NCBI GenBank assembly: GCA_030704615.1
Contig: CM060734.1
Coordinates: 22,444,001-22,508,000 of the forward strand
Direction: 5' to 3'
Length of the DNA stretch: 64,000 nt
DNA from: Takakia lepidozioides
Lineage: Eukaryota; Plantae; Bryophyta
The translations under genes and the position numbers were made by a program. Positions 1 to 28,935 of the stretch are shown piece after piece (the stretch's first letter is position 1; every line of letters begins with the position of its first letter). The notes beneath the pieces were generated by a model. That model was not told the origin of the DNA, made no database searches, and worked only from the letters and a program-made list of their open reading frames with translations.

Positions 1-708
1 GGAGCTCAGCCACTGATGCTGGGCAGAGCTGCTATTGCAGGCTTGGGCCTCACGGAGGCGGATATGGAGCCTTGTCATTTCCAGATATAGACGTCTCTGG
101 GAGGATCGGAGCAAGCTCGAGGCATGACACGGCGTGAGTTGGCTATCAGACTACGGCCGGATCACCCTATAGATGGCTTAGTGATGCGATCCAAGGCCAT
201 TGTGACAGACGCGGTCTCATACGATGTCCTGGTTGGTGGGGCAGTGTTGTACCCCATGGGCTTCACCCTGGATTTTTGGGAGGAGTCAGCTTCCTATAGG
301 CCTGCATGGTAGTCAGGGGAGGGCCGGCGTGTGCAGCTCCCTGTGACGTTCATAGGAGGAGTTGCGGTTGCCCAGCGAGGCAAGATGCCGACACTAGCAG
401 CATTCACAGCGGCAGTGAGTTGGCCTAGAGAGTTGCTTGAGGGCAACGCTCATTCAGAGGATGTACCACCTCTAGGAGAGCAGGATGACATGTATGGTAT
501 GGCGGAGTTGCCTACCATGGTTGCTCAGACTCCATTGTGGGGCACGAGCAAGGATTTGCAGCGGGATGCTAATCGACGGGTGCAACAAGCCTGGGTGGAG
601 GCTTTTGTACCGTCAGGAGAGGAGGAGAGTGCGGGGATTGCACCAGGACCACCTCAATTGTCTCCATTGGACACCACACCTATTGTGTGGCAGTATCCAG
701 ATGAAGGC

Positions 709-1644
709 ATTTGTCTTCTGGACTTGTTTGGCGGGATCAGCACCAGATTTGCTGCTGTGTTACAGGCAGGTGTACGAGTTCGGCGTTACCTGTATGTGGA
801 GAGGGATGAGACTGCACGACACGTTTCACTTCGCCATATTGCTCAGTTGGTGTAGCGGTACCCTGAGTTGTTGTCGGTGTCTGCAATTCGTGGATATCAG
901 CAGGCCTTGCCAGCAGACATTTCGTTGTTGGGGGCGCAGGATTTGGAGCGGGTTGGCTCCATTGATCTGGTAGTGGCAGGTTGGCCCTGCCAAGGGCATT
1001 CATCAGCCGGGCATGGCAATGGATTGCGAGACTCGAGGTCGGGTCTGTTTTGGGAGATGGTGCGGGTTTTGCGCCACTTACAGCTTCATCAAGCTGTACC
1101 TCCAGCATACATCTTGGAGAATGTGCCACTGATGGGCAATTCTCGGGCCAGGGTGATGGCCAGTGTGCATCAAGTCCGGTCGTGGCTTGGGTCAGCAGTG
1201 TTGCTGGATGCAGCTGCAGTGGGGTCACGGGCTCATCGTCCACGGTTATGGTGGACTAACTTGATGCCACCCGCACTGCTTAAGCGTGCATTTGATGGGG
1301 TGCAGCGGCCAGCACATCTCACAATGGATAATATTCTGGACACAGGGAGGTAGTCTCAGCGTGTGAGACATGATGACCGTTCGCCTTTGGCAGTGGTCAA
1401 CAAGGTGGGTCAACCACGAGCAACATTACCTACACTGCTCAGCTTCCCAGGATCGCATGTTTTTCGGGATAGTGGACCTGGTCTCCTGTGGGATGCTCAG
1501 TTGCAGCAGTTAGTGGAGCCTAATGCCGACGAGCGAGAGCGGGCTATGGGATTTTCCACTGGGACCACGGCGGTGCCTTCTCTTTCTGAGGCATCACGTC
1601 GTCAGGTGTTGGGGCAAGCAATGGATCTCAATTGCTTGACCTGG
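709..1644 (+). pseudogene. DNMT3-like C5 cytosine methyltransferase domain in the copy 1 polyprotein (two in-frame TAG stops)
   Basis: Motif I LDLFGGIS, II YVERD, III ADI, IV DLVVAGWPCQG (PC 985-990), V RSGLFWEM, VI YILENV (ENV 1117-1125), VIII DAAAVGSRAHRPRLWWTNL, IX ERERAMGF, X RRQVLGQAM. All in frame +1. Confidence 0.93.
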
Positions 1645-2057
1645 ATTATCAGCTTGGCTATGGCTGAGCAACGTAGAATGAGGAGTGCACTTCCCTTGAT
1701 GGTCTCTCTGCCTACTGAGACGGTACAGGCAGCGAGTGGGGGCGAGCCGGTGAGGACCACGGGGTGTAGATATCCATGGCACACGTGGGAGGTGCTCGAG
1801 GTTCAGAGGGAGTTGGCAGCCAAGGCAGCTGTGATGGATGAGGTTGGGGATTCTTCTCGGGATGAGGAGGTTCTCAATGATGAGATGATAGGGCAGGATG
1901 AGGACTTGTCATTGACTGAGCAGGAAGGGACGCGTCCTCTACCTCTAAGCCCACTGGACTTAAGGTTGCAGTTACGGAGGACAATTGGGAGCCTGACATT
2001 GGACCCATTGTCACCGGAGGAGAGAGACGACGTATACGGCGGTTCCTGAGGGCTTAC

Positions 2058-3410
2058 ATGAATTGCTTTGCCTTCAGTTTGAAGGACTTGGTAGCACTGA
2101 AGGGTCAAGAGATCCGTATTGAGTTGGCCACTGACACGCCAATCTTTCGGAGACCCTATAGATACAGTGACATGGAGAGGTCTTTGATTCAGATGAGGAC
2201 TCAAGATCTGTGGGAGGCAGGTTTGGTGGAGCTCTCTGGTGGAGAGTATGCTTCAGCCACAGTGATGCCAGCCAAGAAGGATGTCTATGGCAATTGGACG
2301 GAGAGACGTATGTGCGGTGATTACCGGCCTGTAAATCGTCAGACCTGATAAGTATGCCATGCCAACACCAGAGGAGATCTTTGATGCCATCGGGCATGCT
2401 AAGGCCTTTAGCACTTTGGATTTACGATCCGGATATCACCAGTTGCCAATCAAGGAGGCGGACAAGCAGAAGACGGCATTCTGGGGGATCAATGAGCACG
2501 GCAAGGATTGCCTATATCAGTGGCGGTTCTTACCATTTGGGCTTAAGAATGCTCCTGCAGAGTTTCAGAGAGTCATGGATAGGATTCTAGCAGGGGTGGA
2601 CTTTGCTCGGTGCTACATAGATGACATCATCATCTTTAGTGTTATGATGGAGGAGCATGAGAGACACCTTCAAGTGGTATTGGAGCGCTTGAGAGCGCAC
2701 GGATTGAAGTTGCATCCAGGGAAGTGCAAGTTTTTCCACAACCAGATTGAGTATCTGGGTCACATGATATATCCTGGAGGATTGGGGGTATAGTAGACTA
2801 AGGTAGAGGCCATTGCACAAATTCCACGCCCCACGGATGTGAGCCGAGTTCGAGCTTTCATGGGGTTGGCAAACTATTATAGACGGTTTGTCAAGGGATT
2901 TAGTACCATTGCAAAGGCTCTAACCAAGCTGACCAAGGTGGACCAGGAGTGGCAGTGGGAAGATGAGCAGGAACGAGCTTTTCAAGAGCTCAAGGCGAGG
3001 TTGACCTTGGCGCCTATCTTGAGACGACCTATCAGGGGGCGTCCCTTTCAGCTGCATACGGATTGGAGCATGCTGGGGCTTGGAGCGGTGCTCACACAGG
3101 TGGATGATGAGGGAAGAGAGTTCGTAGTGGCTTACGCTAGCCGCTCAAACAACGCTGCAGAGGCTAAGTACAGCTCATAGGAGGGAGAGTGCTTAGCTGC
3201 AGTGTGGGCCGTGGCACACTTCAGGTGCTATCTATACGGCAATCTTTTCACCCTTGTCACGGATCACCAGCCACTCAAGTGGTTGATGGAGTCAGACAAG
3301 CTTACGGGGAAGCTTGCACGGTGGGCACTTATACTCCAGGAGTATGACTTTCAGGTTGTGCATCGACCGGGTTTGGTCAATCGGGATGCGGATGGATTGA
3401 GTCGTAATCC
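2058..3410 (+). pseudogene. Reverse transcriptase + RNase H, copy 1
   Basis: RMCGDYR, LDLRSGYHQ, YIDD, KCKF, YLGH, FMGLANYYRRF, TDWS, NRDADGLSR; broken by a frameshift and stops. Confidence 0.95.
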
Positions 3411-3789
3411 ATGCATGAGCCAGCAGGATGACACTGGAGCTCGGTGGCATGGTGAGACGGACGAGGAGATGGTGCCGGGATGGCACGCATCTGCATTTTT
3501 GTGTATCTTGGCATCAGGAGGTCAGATTGGACCTACAACAGGGATGACTGTAGACGGAGTGACTGAGGACCCTGAGGCTAGTGATGAGCTAGGTGGTGCC
3601 AGAGATATACATGAGGATTCGGCTGTGTTGGACTACCTCCGCACGGGAGACACGGCAGCCATTGTGACTGCCAGGGAGAGGGATCGGATCCTGCAACGAG
3701 CCAAGAGGTTCAAGTGGGAGGGGATACACCTACTTCGAGTGTGGGAGGATGGTCGGGTGAGGATTGTGCCTCACCCCACACAGCGTGCA

Positions 3790-5079
3790 CGGTTAGTGTG
3801 GCATGCCCATGAGGAGTTGGGGCATTTTGGAGTGCGACGCACTCACAGTTTACTGCATAGGCAGTATTGGTGGCGTGGTATGCATACAGAGGTGCAACAG
3901 TTCGCGGCTAGGTGCATGGTGTGTGACAGGGTGCGTGCTTCATTCAACGCCCCTACACCACAGTTGCATCCTTTACCAATCATGGGATTGGGCTACAAGT
4001 GGAGACTTGACTTCGCAGGACCGTTGCCACTGACTATGCGCCACCACAGATATGTGTTGGTGATGGTGGAGCACTTCTCCAAGTGGATTGAGTTGGTTCC
4101 ATTGCCTGACAAGGCTACTGAGGGGGCTGCGTATGCATTCTTAGATCGTGTGCTTAGCCGATTTGGTGCTCCAACTGAGGTACTCACGGACCAAGGGAGA
4201 GAGTTTTTGGGGGAGTTTCAGGCTTTGTGTGATAAAGCCTTGATAGACCACCGCACCACTTCTCGGGATCATCCTGAGGCCGATGGCTTAGCAGAGAGAG
4301 TTGTTCAGACGGTGAAGAGGGGTTTGCGCAAGTATGGCTTGCAGAAGGGACACCTAGGAGATTGGGATCTTCAGGTTCCTTGGTTAGCCATGGGCTACAG
4401 GTTCAGCAAACAAGCATCACTTGCCTCCTTCTCACCATATTTCCTTCTCTTTGGCCGAGAGCCGGATTTTCCTGCAGCCATTCGTAGGGACACTGCTCAA
4501 GTCCTTAACCTTGACGATCCGGACGTGTGGGTACGTGCATGTGATCAGCGTGCAGAGTTGTTCAAGAAAGTCATGCCCATGGCTTTTGAGAACCTTGCCA
4601 TTGCACAGCACCGTGATACGTTGAGGTATGCCACTATACGTGGTGGAGGATATCGTCCTGGGGTTCGGAGGTTTAGCCCTGGTGACTATGTTTATTTGCA
4701 GCAGACTGCTCCTACGACTCTGGATGTTACTGCAGGGCGTGTTATTCTGAGGGTTCGAGAGGTGTTGCCCTCAGGGGTCCTGATCTTGGAGGGTCGGGAT
4801 GGCATGACTTGGAAGGACCATGTGCGTAATTGTGCGCCATGTCACCTTCCCAATGTCGATGGCAGAGTTGACCCAAACTTGGCAGTGGTACCTGCAGGTT
4901 TGAGGTGCATGCTCTGTGGGTCTGCCAAAGGGGCAGCCACCATGCTGGTGTGTGATCGATGCTCAACGGGTTGGCATATGGGATGCTTGACACCACCTCT
5001 TGAGAAGGTTCCTGACGGAGATTGGAGTCAATACATGAGATCCCAAGCTCAAGTTCACAGGTTGCAAGACGGTGACTAA
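3790..5079 (+). CDS. Integrase (HHCC, DDE, GPY/F) with C-terminal PHD finger (~4900-5025; last Cys pair deleted)
   Basis: ORF 3202-5079: HEELGH..CMVC, LDFAGP, TDQG, AERVV, SPYFLLFG, then CMLC..CDRC..WHMGCLTPPLEKVPDGDW. Confidence 0.92.
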   Translation, partial: RLVWHAHEELGHFGVRRTHSLLHRQYWWRGMHTEVQQFAARCMVCDRVRASFNAPTPQLHPLPIMGLGYKWRLDFAGPLPLTMRHHRYVLVMVEHFSKWIELVPLPDKATEGAAYAFLDRVLSRFGAPTEVLTDQGREFLGEFQALCDKALIDHRTTSRDHPEADGLAERVVQTVKRGLRKYGLQKGHLGDWDLQVPWLAMGYRFSKQASLASFSPYFLLFGREPDFPAAIRRDTAQVLNLDDPDVWVRACDQRAELFKKVMPMAFENLAIAQHRDTLRYATIRGGGYRPGVRRFSPGDYVYLQQTAPTTLDVTAGRVILRVREVLPSGVLILEGRDGMTWKDHVRNCAPCHLPNVDGRVDPNLAVVPAGLRCMLCGSAKGAATMLVCDRCSTGWHMGCLTPPLEKVPDGDWSQYMRSQAQVHRLQDGD

Positions 5080-5229
5080 TGATGGGGCAACTCTTGCACC
5101 CGGCCTCTTGATCTATCGAGTTTGAGTGTAATAGGGATAGTGGTGGAGGACTTAGTGAGGCTATGGTCACTATCACATCTTGTGGCTACCTGGACTTAGA
5201 GGGACCTAAGCACCAGCTAGGGGGGCGAT

Positions 5230-5910
5230 TGTGTGGACTAGTGACTGCCATAGTGGGCAGCATAGTGGTAGCCTAGTGACTGACTAGTTGTAGCCTAGTG
5301 GTTGGACTAGTGGCTCGACTAGTGGTGGACTAGTGGTATACTAGTGTGTGGTGTGCACATGTATTGTGTGGTTTTGGACAGCGATGTAGTTGTGTAGCGA
5401 TATGTATGCGCACGACAGCTGTCAAGTTATTTACCACTAGTGTAAAACTAGCTAGGAAATAGCTAGCTTTTACATATTGACAGTTGGGATTGGCCCAAGT
5501 GTCAATCCAGGGGTCAAGGCAGATTTAGGCCCTGGAGTGGTTATCTTCACGGCAAGCGCGGGAGGCTCATCTTTCTCGAGTTGAGCCTCACTGCGCCTAG
5601 CTATGGCGCCGTAGTGTGGATTCCCCATGGCGTGGGGTGCACTTGGCTTGACTTGTATTTGAGTGATGAGGCATGAGTTTATGCTTCAGCTTTGTGAGCT
5701 CGCATGAGCTTGTGCTTGTATTCTTCTTCTTATTGTGTGGACTAGTGACTGCCATAGTGGGCAGCATAGTGGCAGCCTAGTGACTGACTAGTTGTAGCCT
5801 AGTGGCTGGACTAGTGGCTGGACTAGTGGTATACTAGTGTGTGGTGTGCACATGTGTTGTGTGGTTTTGGACAGCGATGTAGTTGTGTAGCGATATGTAT
5901 GCGCACGACA
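5230..5910 (+). repeat. 3' terminal region of copy 1: block B (5230-5417), GC, block A (5420-5733), block B again (5734-5910)
   Basis: Near-identical direct repeats TGTGTGGACTAG...GCGCACGACA with internal CTAGTGG repeats. Block A starts TGTCAAGTT. Confidence 0.85.
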
Positions 5911-7339: not shown

Positions 7340-9461
7340 CCCCATGGTCGTGTGAGTGATGGTTGAGAGGAATGAGAGAATATTGGGATGAGAGCATGCT
7401 ACAGGGGTTAGGCATTGCTTTAGCTTCTCTTCCTCGGAGTTTTCCACCCTCTCTATAGGCCAAAACCTTTCCGTAGGTGGAGGCAAGAGTCAGTTCGGGT
7501 TTGGGCTGGGGTGTCTTTGCAGGAGCGACACTATGGAGTGATTTTGGTATGGGGGAGTTGTTGCTTTCATTTCTTGTGTTTGGATCCCCTCCACACCTGC
7601 ATGCTTGACTGTGCGCCATGTTGTTTTGTGTGGGGGTGATGACCAGTCAGACCATCATTGTTTTTCCTGTGGTAAGGTTGGAGGTGATGACCAGCCAACC
7701 ATAGGAGTGTTTGCGGTGGATGCAGGTGCAGGCTATGTTAGGAACCTAGTATTCCAAACCATAAGCCGCAACAGGTTCTCTACCCGGTTACCTTGTGAAA
7801 AGGGGGATTAGGGACATGTTCATGACCGGTTGAGTATCAGTTTGTCAACACGGAGGTGCCACTAGTTGCTGGGGAGAGTGTCGGTTTGAGCACTAGCGAT
7901 AATAGTGGTACACGAGACAAGGTGTGCGGTTTAGGCCACCTTCTTCTCCTGTGTCTTCTAAGAAAGGTTCTGATTCAGACTCTGAATCAGGAGGGTTCAC
8001 GCCGATGGTGCAAGTTATTCCATTGCCATTGTTGTGGGATACAATGGAGAAGATGTATGGAGCTACCAAGGGGCCATGTCGCGCACCTCCCTTCGGTAAG
8101 CTCCCCTACTCGCTTTGATGCGCGCGCCTGACTCCCAACCTGGCCGCCGGGCCAACTTGGAGCTTCGGCTGCTCACCGGGACATAACGGTCCCCCTTTGC
8201 TTCCCACTAAACCCTCCACCTATTTGGGACTAGTGGAATTCCCTTTGGTAGATGGCAGTCCGGAATAGCTCCCCACTCTTTGGTCGCTTTCCGGCTCGCT
8301 CGCTTACTCACTAGTTTTTGGTCACCAACGGGCTTGCACCGTTCTCGGGGTTACTACTCCCTATATATACTTCTGTAGCTGTCCGCGGGGGTTTCATAAC
8401 CAGCCATGCCATTTTATGGCGAACCACCACGAAAACCCTCGACTCCCGGTGATGAGTCGCGGTGAGTCTTGGCCCACTCACCACGGCCCCTATGGACCGT
8501 GATGAGTCCCAAGACTCCCCACGACTCCCACCACGAGGTCTCCGCCCCCATGGTGAGTCCTATGCCACCCCCACTAAGTCCCGCTAAGCTACCACCACCC
8601 CTTGTGGAGCCACCCCCACCGCAACCCGGTGTGCGGGGCTCCACCTAGTGAGCGCCTCCGCCTCCTTCAGTGCCTTGGGCACTCAAGGGTGCTTCAGCCC
8701 CCCATACCTATCGCTGCCGATGCCCCCACCACAGGGGCAGCCCCTCATGTGTCCCGACCCCCTGCCCTCAAGGCAAAGGGCCGCGACAGGCCACATAGGT
8801 ACTCTGGAGCAGTGGGCACCATTGACTTGGACGATTCTATCCAAGAGTTTGATAGTTGGTGTGACTTGCAGCAAATGCGCAATCCACAACTGTTTACGCA
8901 TTTCATGGCATGGAAGGGGCTGTTTTAGCACCTTGAGGGGCCGCCCATGGATGATTACCATGAGTTTAGGCGGGGGCATAAGGTTGAGATCGAAGAGTAG
9001 AGGATATACTGGTCACCCGACTATGTCTCCATCACTAGAGGCACAAGGGCAGTAGCCACACCGGCAGCTTCAACAAACAGCAGTGAGACTAATGGGACTA
9101 GTGGTACCGTAGCTACGACGTCCACCCAAGCCACTGCCGCACCAGCACCAGTACCCGTGTCTGCCTTCAACCCTGTTGTGGAGTTCTTCGAAGAGTTGAG
9201 AAGGAACTACCAAGGGGTGAGGACAGAGAAGTTGCGGAGCTTGTAAGAGTTCCAACGGAAGCCTACTGAGATCTTGAGGGAGGCTTTCACTCGCATGAGG
9301 CGCGTGGGCTTACAAGCGGCCCAACCCACCTTATCAAATGTGTTTTTGCTGGCAGAGCGGATAGAGCTCAACATGGTGGAAGAACGAGTGTCATGGTGGG
9401 ATTTGCTAAAGAGACACCACAAGGTAGTGGTGCTCCTAGCCAACCACTACCCCAACGTGCT
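7340..9461 (+). mobile_element. 5' leader + gag fragment of the same Gypsy-DNMT family, split by a solo LTR
   Basis: Leader matches the reverse complement of ~28450-28935. MEKMYGATKGP | HRYSGAVGTIDLDD..QEFDSWCDLQQMRNPQLF and VFLLAERIELNMVEE match the gag of copies 2 and 4. Confidence 0.85.
8077..8788. mobile_element. Solo LTR (712 bp) of a second family, inserted in gag
   Basis: Termini TGTCGCG...CGCGACA; 5-bp TSD GGCCA at 8072-8076 and 8789-8793; near-identical copy at 42340-43066. Confidence 0.92.
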
Positions 9462-9994
9462 TGTCAAGTTAAATAAACACAGTGTGAAACTAACTAGAAT
9501 AAATCTAGTTATTTGCATTTAACACTTGGAATTAGTTCAAGTGTTAAGTCAGGTGTCAAGTTTAGCTTGACACCTGAACCATCTTATTTTCACGAGCTCG
9601 TCAGTCGTGCGGCTCATCTCTCTCGAGTTGAGCCTGCACGACCAAGCTCCTTCACTGCTTAGAATCTGAGTGTGCTTATGAAGGGAGAATAGGATGTTGT
9701 GGGGTGGAGTCCCCATAGCTTGGGGTGCCCCTGGCTCGACTCTTAGTTTAACGAGTGATGGTGTTGCATTTCGTTTTTCGGTGTCAACAGTGTGATTTTA
9801 GTTTCCTATCACTCGAGAGAGATGAGCTTGCATCTGTGAGTACCAGAGGTGAGTTTAGTTTAGCACTTGTGGTTTTTGTTTTGAAAGTGAGAGAAGAAAA
9901 TTATGGTGGTTTGTAGATTATGTTTGTGACAAGCTGGTTGGAGACAGAGAAGTGATTATCTGTGTTCAGGTAATCTTTAGTTAGAAAGATGTCA
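9462..9994 (+). mobile_element. Block A-type LTR of the Gypsy-DNMT family without adjacent pol
   Basis: Starts TGTCAAGTTAAATAAAC; matches the reverse complements of 31559-32090 and ~21232-21577; related to 5420-5733. Right end uncertain, no clear TSD. Confidence 0.75.
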
Positions 9995-10107
9995 AGTGCA
10001 TCATCAACAGTAGAGTTCAAGTGCGGACTTTGTTCAACTTTCTTCATTGTGCAGGCTCTGGCATTTTTGTTCATGTGATCTGCCAACTTGTCAGCCGCAG
10101 CAGCAAT

Positions 10108-10576
10108 GCATTAGAACACCAGAGAAGCAGCACAAGCAATCAAGCACTTTGAGCTTGCGAAGGCCAAGCGGTACTTGGAAGATGTGCTCGCCTACAAACA
10201 AGGGATTCATTTCCGTCGTTTTTGTGACGGTGTTCGTCGCACAGCTCAAGCGAAGTCGCGACGTTCTAATGGACAAGGACGATGGCCTGTGAAGTATGCT
10301 ACTTTCTTGCTTGGATTGTTGAAGAAAACAGAGAGCAATGTTGAGGTGAAGGGTCTTGCTGTCGACACGCTCGTCATTTGATACATACAGGTCAACAAGG
10401 CCCAGAAGCAGCGCCGCCAACCTACCGAGCACATGGTCGCATCACTAGTCCCTACATGTCATCGCCATGCCCTCTTGAGCTGACTCTCTCAAAGAAGGAG
10501 GTTGTTGTGACGAAAGAGGTGGACACAGAGATTACTCCTAGGAGATCCCGTAAACAACAAGCGCGCTTGCGAAGTG
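10108..10576 (+). pseudogene. RPL17: Processed pseudogene of 60S ribosomal protein L17 (uL22)
   Basis: [67 protein letters not shown]; no introns, with stops and frameshifts. Confidence 0.9.
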
Positions 10577-11632: not shown

Positions 11633-11779
11633 TTTGAGTGTGAGTGTGAGTGTGAGTGTGCTATGAAATATCCACAATTCTGTTTCTAGAACTTGTTGTG
11701 GTCTACATGAGAGACAAATCAGGGGATGTCCTCTTTGTATGGCTGGGGGAAATGAGGACGTAATTGAAGGGCAGGTCTC

Positions 11780-14700: not shown

Positions 14701-17700
14701 TCTTGTGGGATAGCCAGTTGCAGCAGTTAGTGGAGCCCAATGCTGACGAGCGCGAGCGGGCGATGGGTTTTATCACTGGTACCACGGCGGTGCCATCTCT
14801 TTCTGAGGCATCACGTCGTCAGGTGTTGGGGCAAGCAATGGATCTCAATTGCTTGACCTGGATTATCAGCTTGGCTATGGCTGAGCAGCGCAGAGTACAG
14901 AGTACACTTCCCTTGATGGTCTCCCTGCCCACCGAGACGGTACAGGCAGCGAGTGGGGGCGAACAGGTGAGGACCACAAGGTGCAGGCCGCATCCATGGC
15001 ACACGTGGGAGGTGCTCGAGGTTCAGAAGGACTTGGCAGCCAAGGCGGTGGTGATGGATCAGGTTGGGGATTTTTCTCGGGTTGAGGAGGTCCTCAGGAT
15101 GGGATGATGGGGCAGGATGAGACATTGTCACTGACAGAGGAGGCAGTGGTCACTGCTCAAGAGGTTGCAGCATAGCAACCACGAGACGCGTCTTCTACCT
15201 CTAAGCCTGTTGGACTCAAGGTTGCAGTCACGGAGGACAACTGGGAGCCTGATGTTGGACCTATAGTCACCGGAGGAGAGAGAAGACGTATACGGCGGTT
15301 CTTGAGGGCTTACAGGAATTGCTTTGCCTTCAGTTTGAAGGACTTAGGAGCACTGAAGGGTCAAGAGATTCGCTTTGAATTGGCTACTGACACGCCAATC
15401 TTTCGGAGACCCTATAGATACAGTGACATGGAGAGGTCCTTGATTCAGATGAGAACTCAAGATTTTTGGGAGGCTGGTTTGGTGGAGCTATCTGGGGGAG
15501 AGTATGCGTCAGTCACAGTGATGCCAGCCAAGAATGATGTTTATGGCAATTGGACGGAGAGACGTATGTGCGGTGATTACCGGCCTGTAAATCGTCAGAC
15601 CAAGTCCGATAGGTATGCCATGCCGACACCAGAGGAGATCTTTGATGCCATTGGGCATGCCAAGGTCTTTAGCACTTTGGATTTACGATCCGGATATCAC
15701 CAGTTGCCGATCAAGGAGGCGGATAAGCAGAAAACGGCATTTTGGGGGATCAATGAGCACGGGAAGGATTGCCTATACCAGTGGCGGTTCTTACCATTTG
15801 GGCTTAAGAACGCTCCTGCAGAGTTTCAGAGAGTCATGGACAAGATTCTAGCAGGGGTGGAGTTTGCTCGGTGCTACATAGATGACATCATCAACTTTAG
15901 TGCTACGGTGGAGAAGCATAAGAGACACCTTCAGGTGGTATTTGAGCGCTTGAGGGCGTACGGATTGAAGTTACATCCGGGGAAGTGCAAGTTTTCCACA
16001 ACCAGATTGAGTATCTGGGTCACATGATATATCCTGGAGGATTGGGGGTACAACAGACTAAGATAGAGGCCATTGCACAGATTCCACGCCCCACGGATGT
16101 GAGCCGAGTTCGAGCTTTCATGGGGTTGGCAAACTATTATAGACGGTTTGTCAAGGAATTTAGTGCCATTGCAAAGGCTCTAACCAAGCTGACCAAGGTG
16201 GACCCGGAGTGGCAATGGGAAGATGAGCAAGAATGAGCTTTCCAAGAGCTCAAGGCGAGGTTGACCTCGGCGCCCATCTTGAGACGACCTATCAGGGGGC
16301 GTTTTTTTCAGCTACATACAGAGTGGAGCATGTTGGGGCTTGGAGCGGTGCTCACACAGGTGGATGATGAGGGAAGAGAGTTCGTAGTGGCTTATGCCAG
16401 TCATTCGAACAACGCTGCAGAGGCTAAGTATAGCTCATATAAAGGAGAGTGCTTAGCTGCAGTGTGGGCCGTGGCACACTTCAGGTGCTATCTATATGGC
16501 AATCTCTTCACCCTTGTCACGGATCACCAGCCACTCAAGTGGTTGATGGAGTCAGACAAGCTTACGGGGAAGCTTGCACGGTGGGCACTCATACTTCAAG
16601 AGTATGACTTTCAGGTTGTGCATCGACCGGGTTTGGTCAATCGGGATGCGGATGGGTTGAGTCGCAATCCATGCACGAGCCAGCAGGATGACACTGGAGC
16701 TCAGTGGCATGGTGAGACGGACGAGGAGATGGTGCCCGGATGGCATGCATTTGCATTTTTGTGTATCTTGGCAGCGGAAGGCCAGGTTGGACCTACAACA
16801 GGGATGACTGTAGACCGAGTGTCTGAGGACCCTGAGGCCAGCAATGAGCAAGGTGGCGCTAAAGATATACATGAGGATTCAGCTGTGTTGGACTATCTCC
16901 GCACTGGGGGCACGGCAGCCACTGTGACTGCCAAGGAGAGGGATCGGATCCTACAAGGAGCCAAGAGGTTCAAGTGGGAGGGGACACACCTGCTCCGAGT
17001 GTGGGAAGATGGTCGAATGAGGATTGTGCCTCACCCAACCCAGCGGGCATGGTTAGTGCGGCATGCCCATGAGGAGTTGGGGCATTTTGGGGTGCGACGC
17101 ACTCATAGTCTACTGCCGGGGCAGTATTGGTGGCGTGGTATGCACACAGAGGTGCAACAATTTGTGGCTAGGTGCATGGTGTGTCACAGGGTACGTGCTT
17201 CATTCAACGCCCCTACTCCACAATTGCACCATCTTCCAATCATGGGATTGGGCTACAGGTGGAGTCTTGACTTCGCAGGGCCGTTGCCACTGACCATGCG
17301 CCACAACAAGTACGTGTTGGTGATGGTGGAGCACTTCTCCAAGTGGATCGAGTTGGTTCCATTGCCTGATAAGGCTAGTGAAGGAGCTGCGTTTGCATTC
17401 TTGGATTGTGTATTTAGCCGATTCGGTGCTCCAGCTGAGGTACTCACGGACCAAGGGAGAGAGTTCTTGGGGGAGTTTCAGGCATTGTGTGACAAGGCCT
17501 TGGTAGACCACCGCACCACTTCTCGGGATCATCCTGAGGCCGATGGCTTGGCAGAGAGGGTTGTTCAGACAGTAAAGAGGGGTTTGCGCAAGTATGGCTT
17601 GCAGAAGGGTCACCTAGGAGATTGGGACCTTCAGTTACCTTGGTTAGCCATGGGCTACAGGTTCAGCAAGCAAGCATCACTTGCCTCCTTCTCACCATAC

Positions 17701-17997
17701 TCTCTTCTCTTTGGCCGAGAGCCGGATTTGCCTGCATCCATTCGTAGAGAAGCTGCTACATTTCTCAACCTTGACGATCCAGACATGTGGGCACGTGCAT
17801 GTGATCAGCGTGCAGAGTTGTTCAAGATAGTACGTCCTGCAGTCACATCCAAGGTCGTAGGAGCAGTCTGTTGCAGATAAACATAGTCACCAGGGTTAAA
17901 TCTCCGAACTCCAGGACGATAGCCCCCACCACGTATGGTAGCAGACCTCAACGTATCACGATGTTGTGCAATGGCAAGGTTCTCGAAAGCCATGGGC
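11780..17997 (+). mobile_element. Gypsy-DNMT copy 2: gag C-half, PR, DNMT, RT, RH, IN; 3'-truncated, two internal inversions
   Basis: Zinc knuckles CWTCGGPHVKKDC and CGHCDKYGHGNAQC; RGG tract; LLDSGAQ (DSG 13218-13226); DNMT ~13930-14850; RT ORF 15302-16027; RH/IN ORF 16261-17880. Confidence 0.95.
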
Positions 17998-18462: not shown

Positions 18463-18547
18463 TGTCGTGCGCATATGTATCGCTACACAACTACATCGCT
18501 ATCCAAACCACACCACATATATATGCACAATAAAGTAGTCTGCCACA
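18463..18547 (-). repeat. Isolated block B (85 bp, TG...CA)
   Basis: Near-identical to 21580-21664; on the minus strand TGTGGCAGAC...GCGCACGACA. Confidence 0.85.
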
Positions 18548-21190
18548 AGTGCAACCTCCAGTTTACATCATGGAGAATGTTCCTCTCATGGGGGATTCTC
18601 GGGCCAGGATTATGGCCAGTGTACATAAGATCCGGTCATGGATTGGACCAGCTGTATTGTTGGATGCAGCTGCAGTGGATTCACGGGCACATAGGCCTAG
18701 GTTGTGGTGGACCAATCTTGCACCACCAGAGTTGCTCAAGAGAGCCTATGATTCCATTCAACGACCACCCAACCTCATGGTTGAGGGCATTTTGGACCAA
18801 GGGAGGCAACCACAGAGAGTGCGACATGATGATCGTCCACCTTTGGCGGTGGTCAATCGAGTGGGGCAACCACGTGCGGCCTTGCCTACACTCATGAGTT
18901 TTCCCTCGTCTCATGCTTTTCGAGACAATGGTCCTGGGTTGATTTGGGACAGTGTGTTACAACAATTGGTGGAGCCCAATGCGGATGAGCGAGAGCGGGC
19001 AATGGGATTTGCCACGGGCACTACAGCTATGCCAGCTCTGTCAAAGGCATCACGACGCCAGGTGTTGGGTCAGGCAATGGATCTCAATTGATTGACATGG
19101 GTCATTGGCTTGTGTATGGCTGAGCAACGGAGATTGCAAGCATTGGTGGCTACTTCCGCTCTCCCATTGGATATTGCACCATCTCTGCCAACCGGGACGG
19201 TGGAGGCAATGAGTGGGGGCGAGCACGGGATCATGGGGTGCAAACACCCATGGCAGATGTGGGATAAGATGCGCAAAGAGAGAGTCATTGGATCTCTCAA
19301 GCAGCAATATGAGGAGTGGGGAGAGCCATACACTGAGGATCAGTTGGAGGCAAGGTGGCTAAGGTTTTGAAGAGGTTGAAGATGTTTCTTCCCCAGAGGA
19401 TGTTCTCAAGGTGGCTATGGCGGAGCAAGTGGAGGCTACGCCACAGTCAGGATGGGCGGACAAGGCCCAAGAGGTATTATCTAGCAACCAAAGGATGCGT
19501 CTCCTACCTCCAAGCCTGGTGCACCCAAGGTTGTAGTCACTGAGGACAATTGGAACCAGATGTTGGACCTACAGTAACGGAGGAGAGAGACGGAGGATCC
19601 AACGAGTTCTAAGGGCTTATGGAAAATTGCTTTGCCTTCGGTTTGAGGATTTGGGGAGTTTGAAGGGTCAGGAGATTCGTATTGATTTGGCAAGTGACAC
19701 GCCAATCTTTCGAAGGCCCTACCGGTATAGTGACATGGAGAGGTCATTGATCCAGTCACGGACTATTGAGTTGTTTGAAGTTGGATTGGTGGAGTTGTCA
19801 GGCGGGAGTATGCCTCGGCAACGGTGATGCCAGCTAGAAGGATATCTATGGCAATTGGACAGAAGAAGGATGTTGGGGGACTATCGTCCTGTGAACCGAT
19901 TAGACTAAGTCCGATAGATATGCCATGCCAACTCCAAAGGAGATCTTTGATGCCATTGGGCATCAAAGGTGTTGATCACATTGGACATTGCGATCTGGTT
20001 ACCACCAGTTGCCGATCAAAAGGCAGGCTGATGGCTTGGCGGAGGAGAGTTGTTCAGATAGTCAAGAGAGGTTGAGCAAAAAGTACGGTTTGCAGAAGGG
20101 ACACCTAGGAGAATGGGACCTTCAGCTGCCAGGTACGCCACTATACGTGGAGGGGGATATCGGCCAAGTGTGCGGCGTTTCCATCCTGGGGACTATGTGT
20201 ATCTGTGCAGACAATGCTACGACCTTGGATGTCACAGCAGGTTGTGTGATTCTAAGGGTCCGGGAGGTGTTGCCTTCAGGAGTGTGATTCTGGAGGGTCG
20301 AGATTGGCATGGTATGGAAGGACCATGTGCGACTTGTGCGCCAGGTCACCTCCGCATGGGGATGGAGGATATATCCCACCTGCAGTGGTACCTGCAGGGT
20401 CAGGGTTGCGTTGCATTGCTATGTGGGCATGTGGTGTCGTGTCGCACCATGTTGGTGTGTGACAGCTCAAGGGGTGCGACCATGGGATGCTTGACACCGC
20501 CACTTGAGGAGGTTCCTAGTGGAGAATGGTTGTTGTCCACAATGCCTGGACAGAGGTAGTGGGGCATGACAGTGGTGAGAGCGTTGACAAGTGATCGAGG
20601 TAAGCTAACTGGCGTTCAATGCCATGGACACCCAATTGAAGCCATGGATTGCAGGAAGCGAGTAACGATGGGGCTACTTTTGCTTAGATACTGGGACTTG
20701 GGCGATTGATGACCACGCGGTGGATCTTATGGGAGGGATACTTGTCAACTATCTGGTGTTAGAGGGACCTAATCACCAGTTAGGGGGGCGATTGTGGTAT
20801 AGCTCTCTAGGACTGTGTGCTTAGATTGTGTGATGGACAACGATGTATGTTGTGGCACGATGCTTAGGTGACGACAGCTGTCATGGTTTAGTCATGGTTA
20901 TCTAGAATTCCTACTCTAGTTAACTATGACATTTTAGATCATTTATATTTATATGTGTGTGTTGGACTTCATCTGGTTCTCACATTGCCAAGTGAGAGTA
21001 TCGAGCCTCACTTGGGACATGGGGATAGGTTTTCCCCTTGTGAGATGGAGGAGGCTCATCTTCTTGTAGTTGAGCCTCCATGAGCCTCTCTCACTCTATA
21101 GACTCTAGGTATTGAGAGGGAGTGTGGGGAGGGCTGTGTAGGGTGGACCTTGGCTTGACTTAGTTTATGTGATTGAGTGGGTTATGGAGG
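18548..21190 (+). mobile_element. Gypsy-DNMT copy 3 (diverged subfamily): DNMT motifs VI-X, deleted RT/IN, PHD, PPT, terminal blocks
   Basis: ORF 18549-19091 YIMENV..HRPRLWWTNL..ERERAMGF..RRQVLGQAMD; RT and IN scraps; GCLTPPLEEVPSGEW; PPT 20782-20791; block B 20793-20876; palindrome 20873-20882. Confidence 0.88.
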
Positions 21191-21231
21191 GGAGGGTTTC
21201 CATTATGTTCACTTCAATTATCACTACAAGA

Positions 21232-24200
21232 AGAAAACTAAACTCACATTGTCTGATGACACAAAAACACGAAATACAATACAATCACTCGTTAAAATAA
21301 GGGTCGAGCCAGGGGCACCCCAAGCTATGGGGTCTCCACCCCACAAACATCCTACTCTCCCTCCATAAGGTACACTCAGATGCTAAGCAACGAGGGAGCT
21401 CGGTCGTGCAGGCTCAATCGAGAGAGATGAGCCGCACGACTGACGAGCTCGTGAAGATAAGATGGTTCAGGTGTCAAGCTAAACTTGACACCTGACTAAC
21501 AATTGAACTAATTCCAAGTGTTAAATACAAATAGATTTATTCTAGTTAGTTTCACACTGTGTTTATTTAACTGAAAAGCTGTCGTGCGCATACGTATCGC
21601 TACACAACTACATCGCTGTTCAAACCACACCACACATATATGCACAATAAAGTAGTCTGCCACAACGCCCCTCCATCGCTTGATGGTTAGGTCCCTCTAA
21701 CTTAGATAGCTTACAAGATGTATAGCCACAGCCAAACTAAGTCCTTTATCACTATGTCCCTCTTGACTCAAATCTATAGACCAAGAGGTCGGGTACAAGA
21801 GTAGCCCCCATCGTTAGTCGCCGTCTTGCAATCTGTGAACTTGAGCCAAGGATCTTGTGTGTTGGCTCCTAGTAGCTTGGCCTGCATTCTTGTTAGCATT
21901 CCCATGCAGGTTGTATCCACTCCCACTATCCACTGTAATGTGGACATAACCAATCCCCTCAGGAACCATTTCAAGAGGGGGAGTCAAGCATCCCATATGC
22001 CAACCTCTAGAGCATCGATCACACACCAGCATGGTGGTGCCCGTCTAGCAGGACCCACACAACATGCATCTCAAAACTTGCAGGCCCACTGCCAGGTTTG
22101 GGTCAATCCTGCCATCGACTTTGGAGGTGACATGGCACGCATTACGAACATGGTCCTTCCAAATCATGCCATCCCGACCCTCCAAGATCAGGACGCCTGA
22201 GGGCAATACCTCTCGAACCCTCAAATAACACGTCCTGCAGTCACATCAGGGCGTTGGAGCAGTCTGCTGCAGATAAACATAGTCACCAGGGTGAAATGAA
22301 TCTCCAACCCATGACGATAGCCCCACCACGTATGGTAGCATACCTCAACGTATCACGATGTTATGCAATGGCAAGGGTATCAAAAGCCATGGGCATGACT
22401 TTCTTGAACAACTCCGCGCGCTGACCACATGCATGTGCCCAAACGTCCGGATTGTCAAGGTTGAGAACTGTAGCAGCTTCTCTACGAATGGATGCAGGCA
22501 AATCTGGCTCTCGGCCAAAGAGAAGAAAGTATGGTGAGAAGGGGCAAGTGATGCTTGCTTGCTGAACCTGTAGCCCATGGCTAACCAGGGTAACTGAAGG
22601 TCCCAATTCTAGGTAGCCATTACTTGCGCAAACCCCTCTTCACTGTCTGAAACAACCCTCTTGCCAAGCCATCGGCCTCCGGATGATCCCGAGAAGTGGT
22701 GCGGTGGTCTACCAAGGCCTTGTCATACACCGCCTAAAACTCCCCCAAGAACTCTCTTCCTTGATCCGTGAGTACCTCAGCTGGAGCACTGAATCGGCTA
22801 AGTACACGATCCAAGAATGCATACACAGCTCCCTCACTAGCCTTATCAGGCAATGGAACCAACTCGATCCACTTGGAGAAGTGCTCCACCATCACCAACA
22901 TGTACTTGTTGTGGAGCATGGTCAGCGGCAACGGCCCTGCGAAGTCAAGACTCCACCTGTAGCCCAATCCCATGATCGGAAGAGGGTGCAATTATGGTGT
23001 AGGGGCGTTGAATGAAGCACGCACCCTGTGACACACCATGCACCTAGCCACAAATTGTTGCACCGTGTGTGCATACCACGCCACCAATATGCCCTGCAGT
23101 AGGACTATGAGTTGTCGTCGCACCCCAAATGTCCCAACTCCTCATGGGCATGCCGCACTAACTGTGCCCACTGTGTTGGGTGAGGCACAATCCTCACTCA
23201 ACCATCCTCCCACACTCGGAGCAGGTGTGTCCCCTCCCACTTGAACCTCTTGGCTCATTGTAGGATCCGATCCCTTTCCTTGACAGTCACAGTGGCTGTC
23301 GTGTCTCCAGTGCGGAGATAGTCCAACACAACTGAATCCTCATGTATATCTTTGGCGTCACCTTGCTCATTGCTGGCCTCAGGGTCCTCAGACACTCGGT
23401 CTACAGTCATCCTTGTTGTAGGTCCAACCTGGCCTTTTGCTGCCAAGATACACAGAAATGCAGATGCATGCTATCCGGGCACCATCTCCTCGTCCGTCTC
23501 ACCATGCCACCGAGCTCCAGTATCATCCTGCTGGCTCGTGCATGGATTGCGACTCAACCCATTCACATCCCGATTGACTAGACCGGGTCGATGTACCACC
23601 TGAAAGTCATATTCTTGGAGTATGAGTGCCCACCGTGCAAGCTTTCCTTTAAGCTTGTCTGACTCCATCAACCACTTGAGTGGCTGGTGATCCGTGACAA
23701 AGGTGAAGAGATTGCCGTATATATAGCACCTGAAACGTGCCACGGCCCACACTGCAGCTAAGCACTCTCCTTCATATGAGCTATACTTAGCCTCTGCAGC
23801 GTTGTTTGAGCGGCTAGCATAAGCCACTACGAACTCTCTTCCCTCATCATCCACCTATATGAGCACCGCTCCAAGCCCCAGCATGCTCCAATCTGTATGC
23901 AGCTGAAAAGGACGCCCCCTGATAGGTCGTCTCAAGATGGGCGCCGAGGTCAACCTCGCCTTGAGCTCTTGAAAAGCTTGTTCTTGCTCATCTTCCCACT
24001 GCCACTCCTGGTCCACCTTGGTCAGCTTGGTTAGAGCCTTTGCAATGGCACTAAATCCCTTGACAAACCGTCTATAATAGTTTGCCAACCCCACGAAAGC
24101 TCGAACTCGGCTCACATCCGTGGGGCGTGGAATCTGTGCAATGGCCTCTACCTTAGTCTATTGTACCCCCAATCCTCCAGGATATATCATGTGACCCAGA

Positions 24201-27200
24201 TACTCAATCTGGTTGTGGAAAAACTTGCACTTCCCCGGATGCAACTTCAATCCATGCGCCCTCAAGCGCTCAAATACCACCTGAATGTGTCTCTCATGCT
24301 CCTCCACTATAGCACTAAAGATGATGATGTCATCTATGCAGCACCGAGCAAACTCCACCCCTGCTAGAATCCTGTCCATGACTCTCTGAAACTCTGCAGG
24401 AGCGTTCTTGAGCCCAAATGGTAAGAACCACCACTGGTATAGGCAATCATTCCCGTGCTCATTGATCCCCCAGAATGTCGTCTTCTGCTTATCCGCCTCC
24501 TTGATCGGCAACTGGTGATATCCAGATCGTAAATCCAAAGTGCTAAAGACCCAACACTTGACGACATGATGCCTCAGAAAGAGATGGCACCGCCGTGGTA
24601 CCAGTGGTAGAACCCATCGCCCACTCGCGCTCGTCAGCATTGGCCTCCACTAATTGTTGCAACTGGCTATCCCACAAGAGGCCATTGAACAAATTTCGTT
24701 TCATCTCATATTACTCTGGGACCTCTTAGATGGTACATTGAATCCTGGAAAGCTGAGCAGTGTAGGCAATGCGGCTCGTGGGTGTCCCACCTTATTGACC
24801 ATTGCCAAAGGTGATCGATCATCGTGTCTCACACGCTGAGACTGCCTCCCTATGTCCAAAATGCTATCCACCGTCAGGTTTGGTGGCCGTTGCACCCCAT
24901 GAAATGCACGCTTGAGCAGTGCAGGTGGCATCAAGTTGGTCCACCATAGTCGTGGGCGATGAGCCCGTGACCCCACTGTAGCTGCATCCAGCAACACTGC
25001 TAACCCAAGCCAAGACCGCATCTGATGCACACTGGCCATCACCTTGGCCCGAGAATCACCCATCAATGGCACATTCTCCAAGATATATGCCGGAGAGTCT
25101 GTCTGCTGAAGCTGTAAATAACGTAGGACCCTCAACATCTCCCAAAACAGACGTTGTAACCCATTGCCATGCCCGGCTGATAAATGCCCTTGGCAGGGCC
25201 AACCTACCACTACCAAGTGAATAGGACCAACCAGCTCCAAATCATGCGCCCCCAGCAAAGAGATGTCTGCTGGCAAGGCTTGTTGGTATCCACGAACTAT
25301 AGACACTGGCAACAAATCAGGGTACTGCTGCACCAACTGAGCAACATGGGGCAGTGAGATGCGTCGTGCAGTCTCATCCCTCTCCACATACAGGTAACGT
25401 CGAACTCGTACACCTGCCTGCAGCACTGCAGCCAATCCAGTGCTGATCCCGCCAAACAAGTCCAGAAGGCATATGCCTTCATCCGGGCACTGCCACACAA
25501 GAGGTGTGGTGTCCAATGGCGACAACTGAGGCAATCACCGCACTCTCCTCCTCTCCTGATGGTACGAAGGCCTCTACCTAGGCATATTGCACCCGTCTAT
25601 CAGCAACCTGTTGCAAATCCTTGCTTGTACCCCACAATGGAGTGTGAGCAACCATGGTAGGAAACTCCGCCATACCATGCATGTCATCCTGCTCTGCTGG
25701 AGGTGGCACATCCTCTGCATGGGCATTGCCCTCCAGCAGTTCTCCAGGCCAACTAACTACAGCTGTGAAGGCTGCTAGTGTTGGCATCTTGCCCCGTTGG
25801 GCAGCAGCAACACCCCCAATGAATGTCATATGGAGCTGTACATGACAACCATCCCCTGACTGCCATCCAGGCCTGTAGGATGCTGACTCCTCCCAAAAAT
25901 CCAGGGTGAAGCCCATGGGATACAACACTGCCCCACCAACGAGGACATCGTAAGAGACCGCGTCTGTCACAATGGCCTTGGCTCGCATCACTGAGCCATC
26001 TATAGGATGATCCGGCTGTAGTCTAATGGCCAACTCACGCCGTGTCATGCCCCGAGCCTGCTCTGATCCTCCCAGAGATGTCTGTATCTGGAAAGGACAA
26101 GGCTCAATATCCGCCTCCATGAGGCCCAAACCTGCAATAGCAGCTCTGCCCAACATCAGTGGCTGAGCTCCCGAGTCCAACAAGACCCGCAGTGGCGGTA
26201 CCTCTTGTTTGCCGGTCCACTCAAAGAGAAAATGTCATCCTGGTTGTCTAACAAGACAACTCCAGGTGTCACCATGGTGCGCTCAAAGGCTGGCATAGCT
26301 GGCAGCTCCATCAACCTGGCAGCTGCAGCTTGCCATGGCGCAGCCGTGGCAGTCTTGACCCTCAAATCCGAGGATCCCTCTGCCACTATACCTTCCACTA
26401 ATTCCGCAGAAGATGAAGTGACCTCCCCACTCTCGCAGAGTGTTGCTACTAGTCTAAACACTGTAGGTGGTCTTACCCCCGACGTCGCAATCATGGTTGC
26501 CGCGAACAGTGGGGCCTGACACACAAAGGTGGCCGCCCCCAACAACACACTGGCTGCACTAGCTTTGGCAACAGGTGTTAGTGCTGCACGTGTAGCTCTC
26601 CCCAATGGCACAATCGGTATCTGTCAGGCGAGAACTAAGTGCCATGGATGTTGTCGACACTATGTCCCCCAAAATGAATGATTGAGGCAACCTAGCCTGA
26701 CGGCTTGCCTCCCCACGCTGTGGATCTATCTCCACCTCTGCACCTCGTGGCTCAGGAACTCGTGCTGCTCCTCGAGTGACGGCTGCAGCAAACTCCACCT
26801 GCACTAGTAGTAGCGCTCCCCCACACATAAATCCCATGCCTCCCATGTCTTCTCCGTCAGGATGACGCTGCTGAGGATGAACAGGAGGTAGACCCTCAGG
26901 TCTTGGAGCTGGTACCACCTGAGTTGTGGCCATGGCAGCAAGCCTTTGCTCTAGCTGCTGAAGCCGGTTAGCCATACCTTGGTCAACGCCCTGACCTCCA
27001 CGTCCTTGGCCATAGTGTGCTTGCCCTCGTCCTGCACCTTGTGCCTGACCACCTCGTCCTCTCTGAGGTGCTCCACCTCGTCCTCGGCCGCCATTGTTCC
27101 CTTGGAACTGGCCTCGCCGCAACTCAGGGTGCAAGTCATAACACTGGGTATCTCCATGCCCATATTTGCCACAATGCCCACACTGCAACTGTGCAGGCTG

Positions 27201-28935
27201 TGCTTGTGCTGGCCCTTTGCCACTCTTGGGCAATCTTTCTTGACATGGGGTCCTCCACATGTCCAACATACCACCCCTGGTTGCTTTTGGCCTGCAAAAG
27301 ATGCTACTGGCCTCTATACCTGAGGTCCCCTGTAAGCTCCATGGAATTTGGGTTGGGCAACCTTGCCCCCCTGACCACGCTGTTGGGCAGTCCCTTGTGC
27401 CTGTTGGCTGGCAGCTGCGCCTCGTGCAAGCATGTCCTTGCCAAATCAAATGGTAACAACTTGCTCTTCCACCATGTTGAGCTCAATCCACTCAGCCAGC
27501 AGAAACACATCTGCTAATGTGGGTTGGGCCACTTGTAACAGGGTTGCATCCCGCACCCTTCTCCTGAGCTCCTTGTCCAAAATTCCATACCAGAACTGGA
27601 CTGCCTGAGCTTCACTAACCCCTTGTAGGCCTCTTGCAAGCTCTCACTGGATTTGCACTAGAAGTCTTGCAAACTTCGCAGCTTCTCTGTCCGTACACCT
27701 TGGTAGTTCCTCCGCAACTCCTAGAAGAACTCCACCACCGGGTTGAATCTAAGCACATGTGTTGTAGTCGTGGCAGGAGGAGTGGTAGCAACTTTAGAAC
27801 TGGTACCACATGCATAAGTACTGGCACTACTTGTTCCACTACTAGTGCTGGCAGTGAGAGATATTGGTGCTGATGCAGCTACTGGTCGCGTCGTGCCTCG
27901 AGTAATGGAGACGTAGTCAGGTGACCAATACATCCTCCACTCCTCAATCTCTGCTTCATGTCCTCGCCTGAACTCGTGGTAATCGTCCATAGGCGGGCCT
28001 TCCAAATGCTGGAACAGTCCCTTCCACGCCATGAATAGGGTGAACAACTGTGGATTGCGCATCTGCTGCAAATCACACCAGCTGTCAAACTCCTGGATAA
28101 AGTCATCCAGCTCGATTGTGCCCACAGCTCTAGAGTACCTACGAGGCCCCTTGGTAGCTCCATACATCTCCTCCATGTTGTCCCACAACAATGGCGAAGG
28201 AAACTGCACACCTGTTGATGAAGCCTCCGAGTCTGTGTCAAACTCTGCACTAGTTGAGGGTGGAGGTGAAGGTGGTCTAAACCAAACACCTCGCCTTGTG
28301 AATCCACTCTCACTGCTACTGCCTATAGCCGTACTCCCCTCAAAACCCTTGGGTAACTCCGTGATGACACTCACAACCCGCACCTCCCCCACGTGATACT
28401 ATAAGGCTCTGGTACTAATTCTAATAGTGAAACGGGTTGGCACCTGTTGCGGTTTAAGGGTCATATCCCAGTGGCTAAGGGCACCTGCACTTGCATCCAC
28501 CGCAAGAACTCCTGTGGTTGGCTGGTCATCAACCCAGCCTCACCATAGAAGAAACATTGGTGGTCTTGCTGGTCATCACTCCAGCCTCACCACCGACAGC
28601 ATACTCTAGGATTGACCGACGATCAAATCCGGCCTAATCCCTATGAAAGCAAGCGCCCACACAAAACCAACATGGCGCACAGTCAAGCATGCAGGTGTGG
28701 GGGGGGGATCCAAACACAAGAATCAAAAACATCAACACCCCCACACCAAATCCCTCCGCAGTGCTGCTCCTGCAGAATACCCCAGCCCAAAAACCCGGAC
28801 CGACTCTTGCCTCCACCTATGGAAAGGTTTTGGCCTGCTGAGAGGGTGGAAAGCTATGGGGAGGAGAGACTAAAGCAATTCCTAACCCCAGCATGCCCTC
28901 ATCCTGACACTCTCCATTTCCTCTCTAGCCATACA
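21232..28935 (-). mobile_element. Gypsy-DNMT copy 4, the most complete: leader, gag, PR, DNMT, partial RT, RH, IN, PHD, PPT, terminal blocks
   Basis: gag 28392-26560; LDSGAQ at ~26180; DNMT ORF 25534-24701; RT C-half, RH and IN ~24550-22100; PHD ~22070-21940; PPT ~21666-21674; block B 21580-21664. Confidence 0.93.
24555..25475 (-). pseudogene. DNMT3-like domain of copy 4 (motifs I-VIII open in one frame)
   Basis: LDLFGGISTG, YVERD, GWPCQG, YILENV, HRPRLWWTNL within ORF 24701-25534; motifs IX-X follow a short filler insertion. Confidence 0.92.

Follow-up and report, generated by a model that had tools for sequence, protein, structure and literature searches.

Background

The described system nearest in kind to the elements reported here is KnitGypsy-Dnmt3 of the alga Klebsormidium nitens, which combines DIRS-like repeats with a DNA methyltransferase (DNMT) domain in one open reading frame (ORF) with reverse transcriptase (RT) and RNase H (RH) (PMC5890265; this and the other papers are cited from the parts of their text that were available). 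Like the elements below, SymbioDIRS-Dnmt3 and the EpiLTRs are retrotransposons that carry a cytosine-5 methyltransferase (C5-MTase). The former are tyrosine-recombinase elements whose enzyme methylates CG, and the latter have DNMT4-related domains with DAM and a chromodomain; these are separate captures (PMC5890265; bioRxiv 10.64898/2026.05.21.726589). The 2026 preprint also mentions 'streptophytes (Gypsy-DNMT3)', with no land-plant detail in the part available.

Here we describe a Ty3/Gypsy-type family with a DNMT3-like domain in a 64,000-nucleotide (nt) stretch of DNA (the window) from the bryophyte Takakia lepidozioides (assembly GCA_030704615.1, contig CM060734.1, positions 22,444,001 to 22,508,000, forward strand). 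Like KnitGypsy-Dnmt3, these elements have the Gypsy domain set, an unrearranged DNMT3-like domain under purifying selection and DIRS-like split repeats. Unlike KnitGypsy-Dnmt3, they reside in a land plant, and a conserved stop codon parts the DNMT from RT and RH, the single-ORF trait being confined to distant relatives. Set beside its published description, the family is related in kind to KnitGypsy-Dnmt3, although it fails on the single-ORF feature. Target duplications, a palindromic attachment (att) site, and predicted self-priming and readthrough are features of the present elements that are undescribed for KnitGypsy-Dnmt3 in the available text. The kind of element is already known from Klebsormidium. 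A literature search, made without Repbase or most subscription papers, returned no land-plant family, no such stop or readthrough and no such integration route, and the available parts of PMC11982613, PMC11244446 and PMC10952607 contain no mention of DNMT-bearing Gypsy elements.

A DNMT3-like domain in four element copies

Comparison of the window with itself revealed four related Ty3/Gypsy copies and a partial fifth, all of them broken. Overall, the domain order is Gag, protease (PR) and DNMT, an in-frame stop followed by CAA-CC, and then RT, RH, integrase (IN) and a PHD finger; the Ty3/Gypsy order PR-RT-RH-IN is present, with a DDE (rve) integrase. The PHD finger at the C-terminus of copy 1 matches PF00628 (E 1.5e-7), and no chromodomain is found at the integrase end.

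An earlier note on this DNA, made from the sequence alone, had proposed C5-MTase sequence upstream of RT in four copies and after the PR in the three that retain one. Both points hold. PR lies upstream of the DNMT in copies 1, 2 and 4, and the PF00145 profile matches copy 1 at 856-1350 with an E value of 4.4e-15 (56 bits versus a cut-off of 22). Matches in copy 2 (14090-14509, E 1.9e-4) and copy 4 (24704-25534, minus strand, E 7e-4) are under the cut-off, and the copy 3 piece (18534-19088) has no Pfam match, yet aligns with the DNMT of the other copies. The canonical order of motifs I to X reported in the same note is complete only in copy 1, which carries two internal stops: motif VI is absent from copy 2 (inversion/deletion at 14262-14411), copy 3 is without motifs I to IV, and in copy 4 motif X is cut short at its end. 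By motif order the domain is unrearranged.

The affinity to DNMT3 is borne out by sequence and fold. The best PDB sequence match of the copy 4 ORF is DNMT3A (E 3.8e-8), and a 73%-identical relative, P0121, ranks DNMT3A (3.6e-11) ahead of DRM-type (1.2e-6) and M.HaeIII (4.5e-5) enzymes. For an AlphaFold model of protein P0001 (pLDDT 88), all of the Foldseek matches listed are DNMT3A/B (TM 0.63/0.79, E 1e-17). Judged by the ratio of non-synonymous to synonymous substitution rates (dN/dS), the domain is kept by purifying selection: between window subfamilies the ratio is 0.11-0.20 for the DNMT, similar to that of RT (0.16-0.17) and IN (0.22). More closely related copy pairs give 0.55-0.57, as expected from decay after insertion. 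The catalytic motifs PCQ, ENV and RxR are near-invariant in 41 sequences, which favours catalysis over a mere binding module.

A conserved stop codon between DNMT and RT

DNMT and RT are in frame with each other and parted by a conserved stop codon, with ORF1 comprising Gag-PR-DNMT and the second part RT-RH-IN-PHD. Copies 2 and 3, which are ~75% alike, both read TAG CAA CCA at the junction (15173 and 19482), and in copy 3 motif X, the TAG and the RT start occur in a single phase. The earlier note had placed PR, DNMT and RT-RH-IN of copy 1 in frame +1 and had read two cancelling deletions (37 + 5 nt) as the trace of an ancestor with one continuous polyprotein. Both deletions are real, but with the 37-nt one copy 1 has lost the DNMT/RT junction itself, and the RT N-terminus is actually in frame +3. 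A single unbroken polyprotein is not supported for the immediate ancestor: copies 2 and 3, like 36/41 distinct related loci, have the in-frame stop between DNMT and RT. What remains of the proposal is that the two are in frame. A -1 frameshift between them, to which the ORF frames of copies 1 and 2 had pointed, was ruled out, since copy-specific indels cause the difference. At ~15096, copy 2 alone is 1 nt short relative to copies 1 and 3 and to contigs of four sequencing runs.

The related loci come from a census of metagenome data, in which an alignment query found 80 loci, 51 with the RT start, reducing to 41 distinct. The junction codon is a stop in 36 of these (TAG 28, TAA 8) and TAC in two, and was not located in three. 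Among the 39 in-frame loci, a stop falls at the junction codon in 36, whereas any other of 100 codons is a stop in at most 6. The six bases 3' of the junction codon are CAACCC in 32 of the 41 loci. A metagenome scan with a single copy-4 protein as query found no relative in 108 stretches, and viral contigs yielded none in 21.

Full-length ORF1 proteins of several subfamilies have homologous C-termini 36-165 amino acids (aa) past the DNMT. Proteins with continuous PR-DNMT-RT (P0228, P0232, P0227, P0234) fall outside the 35-row clade (support 98) that contains the window copies, and P0226, which terminates inside RT, is a truncated continuous form. Gene models that fuse DNMT to RT in Marchantia and Sphagnum (P0128, P0129, P0132, P0134, P0158) bypass the junction and were excluded from the continuous forms; short fragments carried the default label 'ends after DNMT' in the DNMT tree and were discounted as evidence. 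Seven of 14 RT-RH-IN relatives without a DNMT begin at most 36 aa from RT, as expected for a Pol that follows a stop.

The readthrough consensus of tobacco mosaic virus (TMV) is UAG_CAR_YYA (PMC3542737), and it fits window copies 2 and 3 as well as L038, a locus of a separate lineage with TAG CAA CCA. Stops also lie between the ORFs of the retroelements MuLV, SIRE1 and Tca2, and the in-frame UAG is a likeness to these and to tobamoviruses (PMC2194720, PMC3542737). Unlike in these systems, the stop here is situated past both PR and DNMT. RT-RH-IN-PHD is likely made by stop readthrough, and a stop in this position, if read through, would put DNMT and PR at the level of Gag.

Split repeats and element ends

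The coding region is not flanked by two identical long terminal repeats (LTRs). Instead, two repeats, A and B, are arranged as A...B-A-B or A...B: eight long loci (7 sites) read A1-coding-B1-A2-B2 and ten (9 sites) read A1-coding-B. The split repeats had escaped the earlier note, as had the PHD finger and the fifth partial copy; the 5' repeat of copy 4, at 32090, lies beyond the range covered by that note. The copies comprise the following features, in which PPT is a polypurine tract and PBS a primer-binding site.

1..330, plus strand: copy 1 aspartic protease, start beyond the window edge; relatives match Asp_protease_2
709..1644, plus: copy 1 DNMT3-like C5-MTase, motifs I-X ordered, frame +1, two internal stops
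1920..3350, plus: copy 1 RT and RH, with the 37-nt deletion at ~1925 (DNMT/RT junction gone) and the 5-nt deletion at ~2345
3775..5025, plus: copy 1 integrase (H2C2, rve) and C-terminal PHD finger, by Pfam
5219..5228, plus: copy 1 PPT-like sequence ahead of B1
5229..5910, plus: copy 1 3' end, with B1 to 5417, A2 from 5420, B2 at 5732-5910 and terminal GACA
5414..5423, plus: copy 1 palindromic B|A junction GACA-GC-TGTC, the predicted integrase att site; also in copy 3 (20873-20882) and related loci
7355..9461, plus: partial fifth copy (5' leader, gag start), split by another repeat at 8077-8790
9462..9827, plus: 5' repeat A1 (9462-9811) and putative self-priming PBS (9812-9827), complementary to 9612-9627
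11784..15172, plus: copy 2 gag-PR-DNMT, broken, with inversion 14262-14411 and several 1-nt indels
15173..15181, plus: copy 2 stop and CAA CCA between DNMT and RT, a TMV-type readthrough context
15176..17997, plus: copy 2 RT-RH-IN, truncated, with inverted piece 17822-17997
18463..18553, minus: copy 4 B2; TGTC next (target-duplication partner)
18554..21234, plus: copy 3, a diverged-subfamily fragment, with DNMT C-half, TAG CAA CCA at 19482, RT/IN pieces, PPT, B, A and its own 11-nt PBS
21235..21663, minus: copy 4 B1 and A2
21950..28400, minus: copy 4 gag-PR-DNMT (24555-25475)-RT-RH-IN; a 791-nt deletion spans the end of the DNMT, the DNMT/RT junction and the start of RT
31723..32090, minus: likely copy 4 A1 (32090-31736) and PBS (31735-31723), preceded by TGTC

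Elements start with TGTC and end with GACA. Target duplications of 4 bp are perfect in 7 of 10 cases and match at 3 of 4 positions in the other 3, as compared with 2 of 90 perfect in a mismatched-pair control; the likely target duplication of window copy 4 is TGTC/TGTC. Copies 1 and 3, like several of the loci, have the palindrome GACA-GC-TGTC at their B1|A2 junction, and decayed versions occur in others; the predicted att region contains CG and CAG/CTG.

A PPT-like tract lies ahead of B1, and the stretch that follows A1 is the complement of a site within A, over 13-16 nt in the window family. The complement in the copy 3 family is 11 nt long and of unlike sequence. In peat-moss-type loci the pairing occurs with at most one mismatch in 10 of 18, with the site inside A ~31 nt below a TATAA in several; PBS-to-A pairing is found in three families of differing sequence. 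The predicted fold of the leader RNA pairs the 5' end with the PBS (z -3.85). Very probably, then, the RNA begins inside A and primes itself in the style of Tf1. A PPT before B1 and a PBS after A1 would make B+A the true LTR, and with this LTR the integrated form corresponds to a circle with two LTRs that has been opened within the 5' one. Tf1/Sushi and Tcn1 chromoviruses, which self-prime, share with these elements the predicted self-priming, the lack of a tRNA PBS and the occurrence in non-seed plants; they differ in that the present elements have a PHD finger, not a chromodomain, at the integrase end, a DNMT and permuted repeats (PMC6317226).

At A2|B2 the two repeats mostly abut cleanly, with ~20 nt of filler in locus L039. 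Copy 3 is inserted, inverted, at the A2|B2 junction of copy 4, with short microhomologies, and terminates exactly at its own PBS; this position and the microhomologies are what an end-joining step would leave. Foamy virus and HIV-1 integrases cut palindromic two-LTR circle junctions (PMC1180852, PMC1905944). Here, too, a palindromic CA..TG junction would be cut to give 3'-processed ends; unlike those described, it is located inside the LTR, and cutting it would appear to be the usual path of integration, with permuted repeats as the outcome.

Membership of the DIRS/PAT/Ngaro group was ruled out by the rve integrase and the 4-bp duplications, and no tyrosine recombinase was matched in 22 scanned ORFs. 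Two loci, L023 and L072, share one 3' flank but differ in their repeats, one contig having B alone and the other B-A-B. This difference may reflect B-B recombination or assembly collapse, and the A...B forms may be explicable likewise.

Relatives and distribution

Searches with the DNMT domain gave named homologues in Marchantia polymorpha, M. paleacea and Calypogeia fissa (66-71% identity for the two genera) and in three Sphagnum species (54-63%), with no match named Klebsormidium; an Atlas search returned generic PF00145 clusters only. A Marchantia cluster of 18 members includes several proteins of 1278-1281 aa, and full-length natural ORF1 copies are present in M. polymorpha (for example, Mp4g09160, Mp5g06330 and Mp5g06860). 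In the DNMT tree, which covers TE-borne (transposable element-borne) domains only, copy 1 belongs to a 12-row clade with the named homologues (SH-aLRT 100). The family is very abundant in its host, as 54,991 contig pieces from one host-species run align to copy 2.

An integrase-PHD query added 145 proteins, 130 of them with a PHD finger. Among these integrase-query relatives, 57 have RT, RH and IN, and 43 of the 57 have a DNMT, situated between RH and IN in 38 and before RT in 5. In a sister clade (P0154-P0163, P0229-P0250, P0256-P0396) the DNMT lies between RNase H and integrase, in some cases accompanied by a G-patch. Cz02g39130 of the chlorophyte Chromochloris belongs to this clade, which forms a separate group in both the RT tree (99), which is limited to DNMT-bearing relatives, and the DNMT tree (84).

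These relatives extend retrotransposons with a self-encoded DNMT3 from one alga to land plants, among them the model species Marchantia polymorpha, whose full-length ORF1 copies open the role of TE-borne DNMTs to direct testing. Elements of this kind account for some of the 'DNA methyltransferase genes' annotated in bryophytes. The clade is probably undercounted, because LTR finders search for a pair of flanking LTRs, which the permuted repeats do not provide.

A model for replication and its alternatives

We propose a Ty3/Gypsy-type lineage with a DNMT3-like enzyme at the end of its Gag-protease ORF, many copies of which would be packaged to methylate the element's own cDNA, with the DNA inserted from a circle. 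Ribosomes would read through the stop at a low rate, probably giving DNMT at the level of Gag while Pol stays scarce. The ends of the linear cDNA would be joined (A2|B2), and integrase would cut the palindrome in the 5' LTR to give CA-3' ends with 2-nt overhangs; from the sequence of the ends, we hold integration from an end-joined circle opened inside one LTR to be reasonably probable. Protease would free the DNMT, CG sites in the cDNA would be methylated so that a new copy arrives resembling host heterochromatin, and the PHD finger would steer integration, a part of the model to which we give an even chance. Packaging and cDNA methylation are suggested by the position of the domain, its motif conservation and the CG activity of SymbioDIRS-Dnmt3. 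Taken whole, the combination is marginally favoured as the best explanation. If the circle-opening route is true, it would be a natural case of an integrase that ordinarily acts on an internal palindrome. Far more tentatively, the elements might represent a hitherto unrecognised clade of Ty3 elements in the green lineage, bearing DNMT3 and a PHD finger and abundant in bryophytes, that joins a readthrough-loaded DNMT at capsid stoichiometry to obligate circle integration, a third route between LTR and DIRS elements, with methylation possibly choosing the att site.

Several observations weigh against parts of this model. The CAA-CCC of peat-moss-type loci departs from the CAR-YYA consensus, an ATG directly after their stop permits re-initiation, and the Tca2 gag-pol stop is not locally leaky in the description available (PMC2194720). 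Most census loci belong to one family, with text matching Sphagnum fallax P0158, and for that reason they are not independent but represent some 3-4 lineages. The A-B-A...B form predicted by a symmetric circle model was seen at 0 of 21 5' ends (17 distinct sites), and the loci derive from short-read assemblies in which repeats may collapse, as L023 and L072 illustrate. In yeast, the KnitGypsy-Dnmt3 domain on its own produced no methylation, a result the authors call inconclusive (PMC5890265), and the observed/expected CpG ratio of the copies (0.46-0.55) is not distinctive against the rest of the window (0.39-0.56). A CpG-depletion signature of self-methylation, sought in the window copies, was not found, which neither favours nor disfavours cDNA methylation. 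C/T differences are more frequent at CG and CHG than at CHH, for which host methylation accounts.

The DNMT might instead act in trans on host chromatin and earlier copies, serving copy-number control or the re-marking of insertion sites, and not on the cDNA in the particle. The surplus enzyme that Gag-level expression implied by the stop would yield, the abundance of the family in its host and the host benefit raised by the authors of PMC5890265 all suit such a role. The majority of distant relatives, however, place the DNMT between RH and IN in Pol (38/57), tied to cDNA synthesis and integration, and we consider action in trans unlikely. Less probable again is that the domain is a DNA-binding or protective module, or marks one att palindrome and so restricts cutting to the 5' site, with no genome-wide silencing role. 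Such marking would address the asymmetric use of att sites, which is otherwise unexplained (B upstream at 0/21 5' ends), and would have CG and CAG/CTG available in the att region; the inactivity of the Klebsormidium domain in yeast fits a binding module (PMC5890265). Yet att marking is without direct support, and the near-invariance of PCQ, ENV and RxR speaks for catalysis. Least probable is that Pol is made without readthrough, by re-initiation or from a spliced or separate RNA, and that the split repeats are rebuilt in DIRS/PAT fashion from an A1-to-B2 RNA: although the ATG of peat-moss-type loci, a repeat layout the same as in DIRS-type elements (PMC5890265) and the almost constant A2|B2 junction agree with it, that ATG is absent from the window copies and L038, the PPT and PBS define B+A as an ordinary LTR, and 4-bp duplications with an rve integrase are unlike recombinase insertion.

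Other features of the window

A 5009-nt contig from a sequencing run labelled as another organism carries the inversion of copy 2 and its joint (13622-17897, ~95% identity), which suggests an old insertion common to both species. Straight after the 5' leader of the element, 10050-10500 (plus) holds a decayed retrocopy, which by its wording we take to be ribosomal protein L17/uL22-like, with no tool match. The other leader copy (32090-31550) runs into different, unrelated DNA at the equivalent point, and these junctions may mark cargo-carrying derivatives. A repeat of ~100 nt is common to 11500-11600 and 29090-29160 (minus), ahead of gag in copies 2 and 4 and after unrelated DNA. The ~720-nt repeats at 8077-8790 and 42340-43068 are 94% identical, the first of them inside the fifth partial element. 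Broken pentatricopeptide repeat (PPR) genes with PLS-like wording occupy 35245-36741 and 46100-49400 (both minus), their nearest Atlas clusters being Streptophyta, in keeping, like the TE affinities, with a land-plant host, and an ORF for an endonuclease of the long interspersed nuclear element (LINE) type (PF03372) lies at 32323-34050 (minus).

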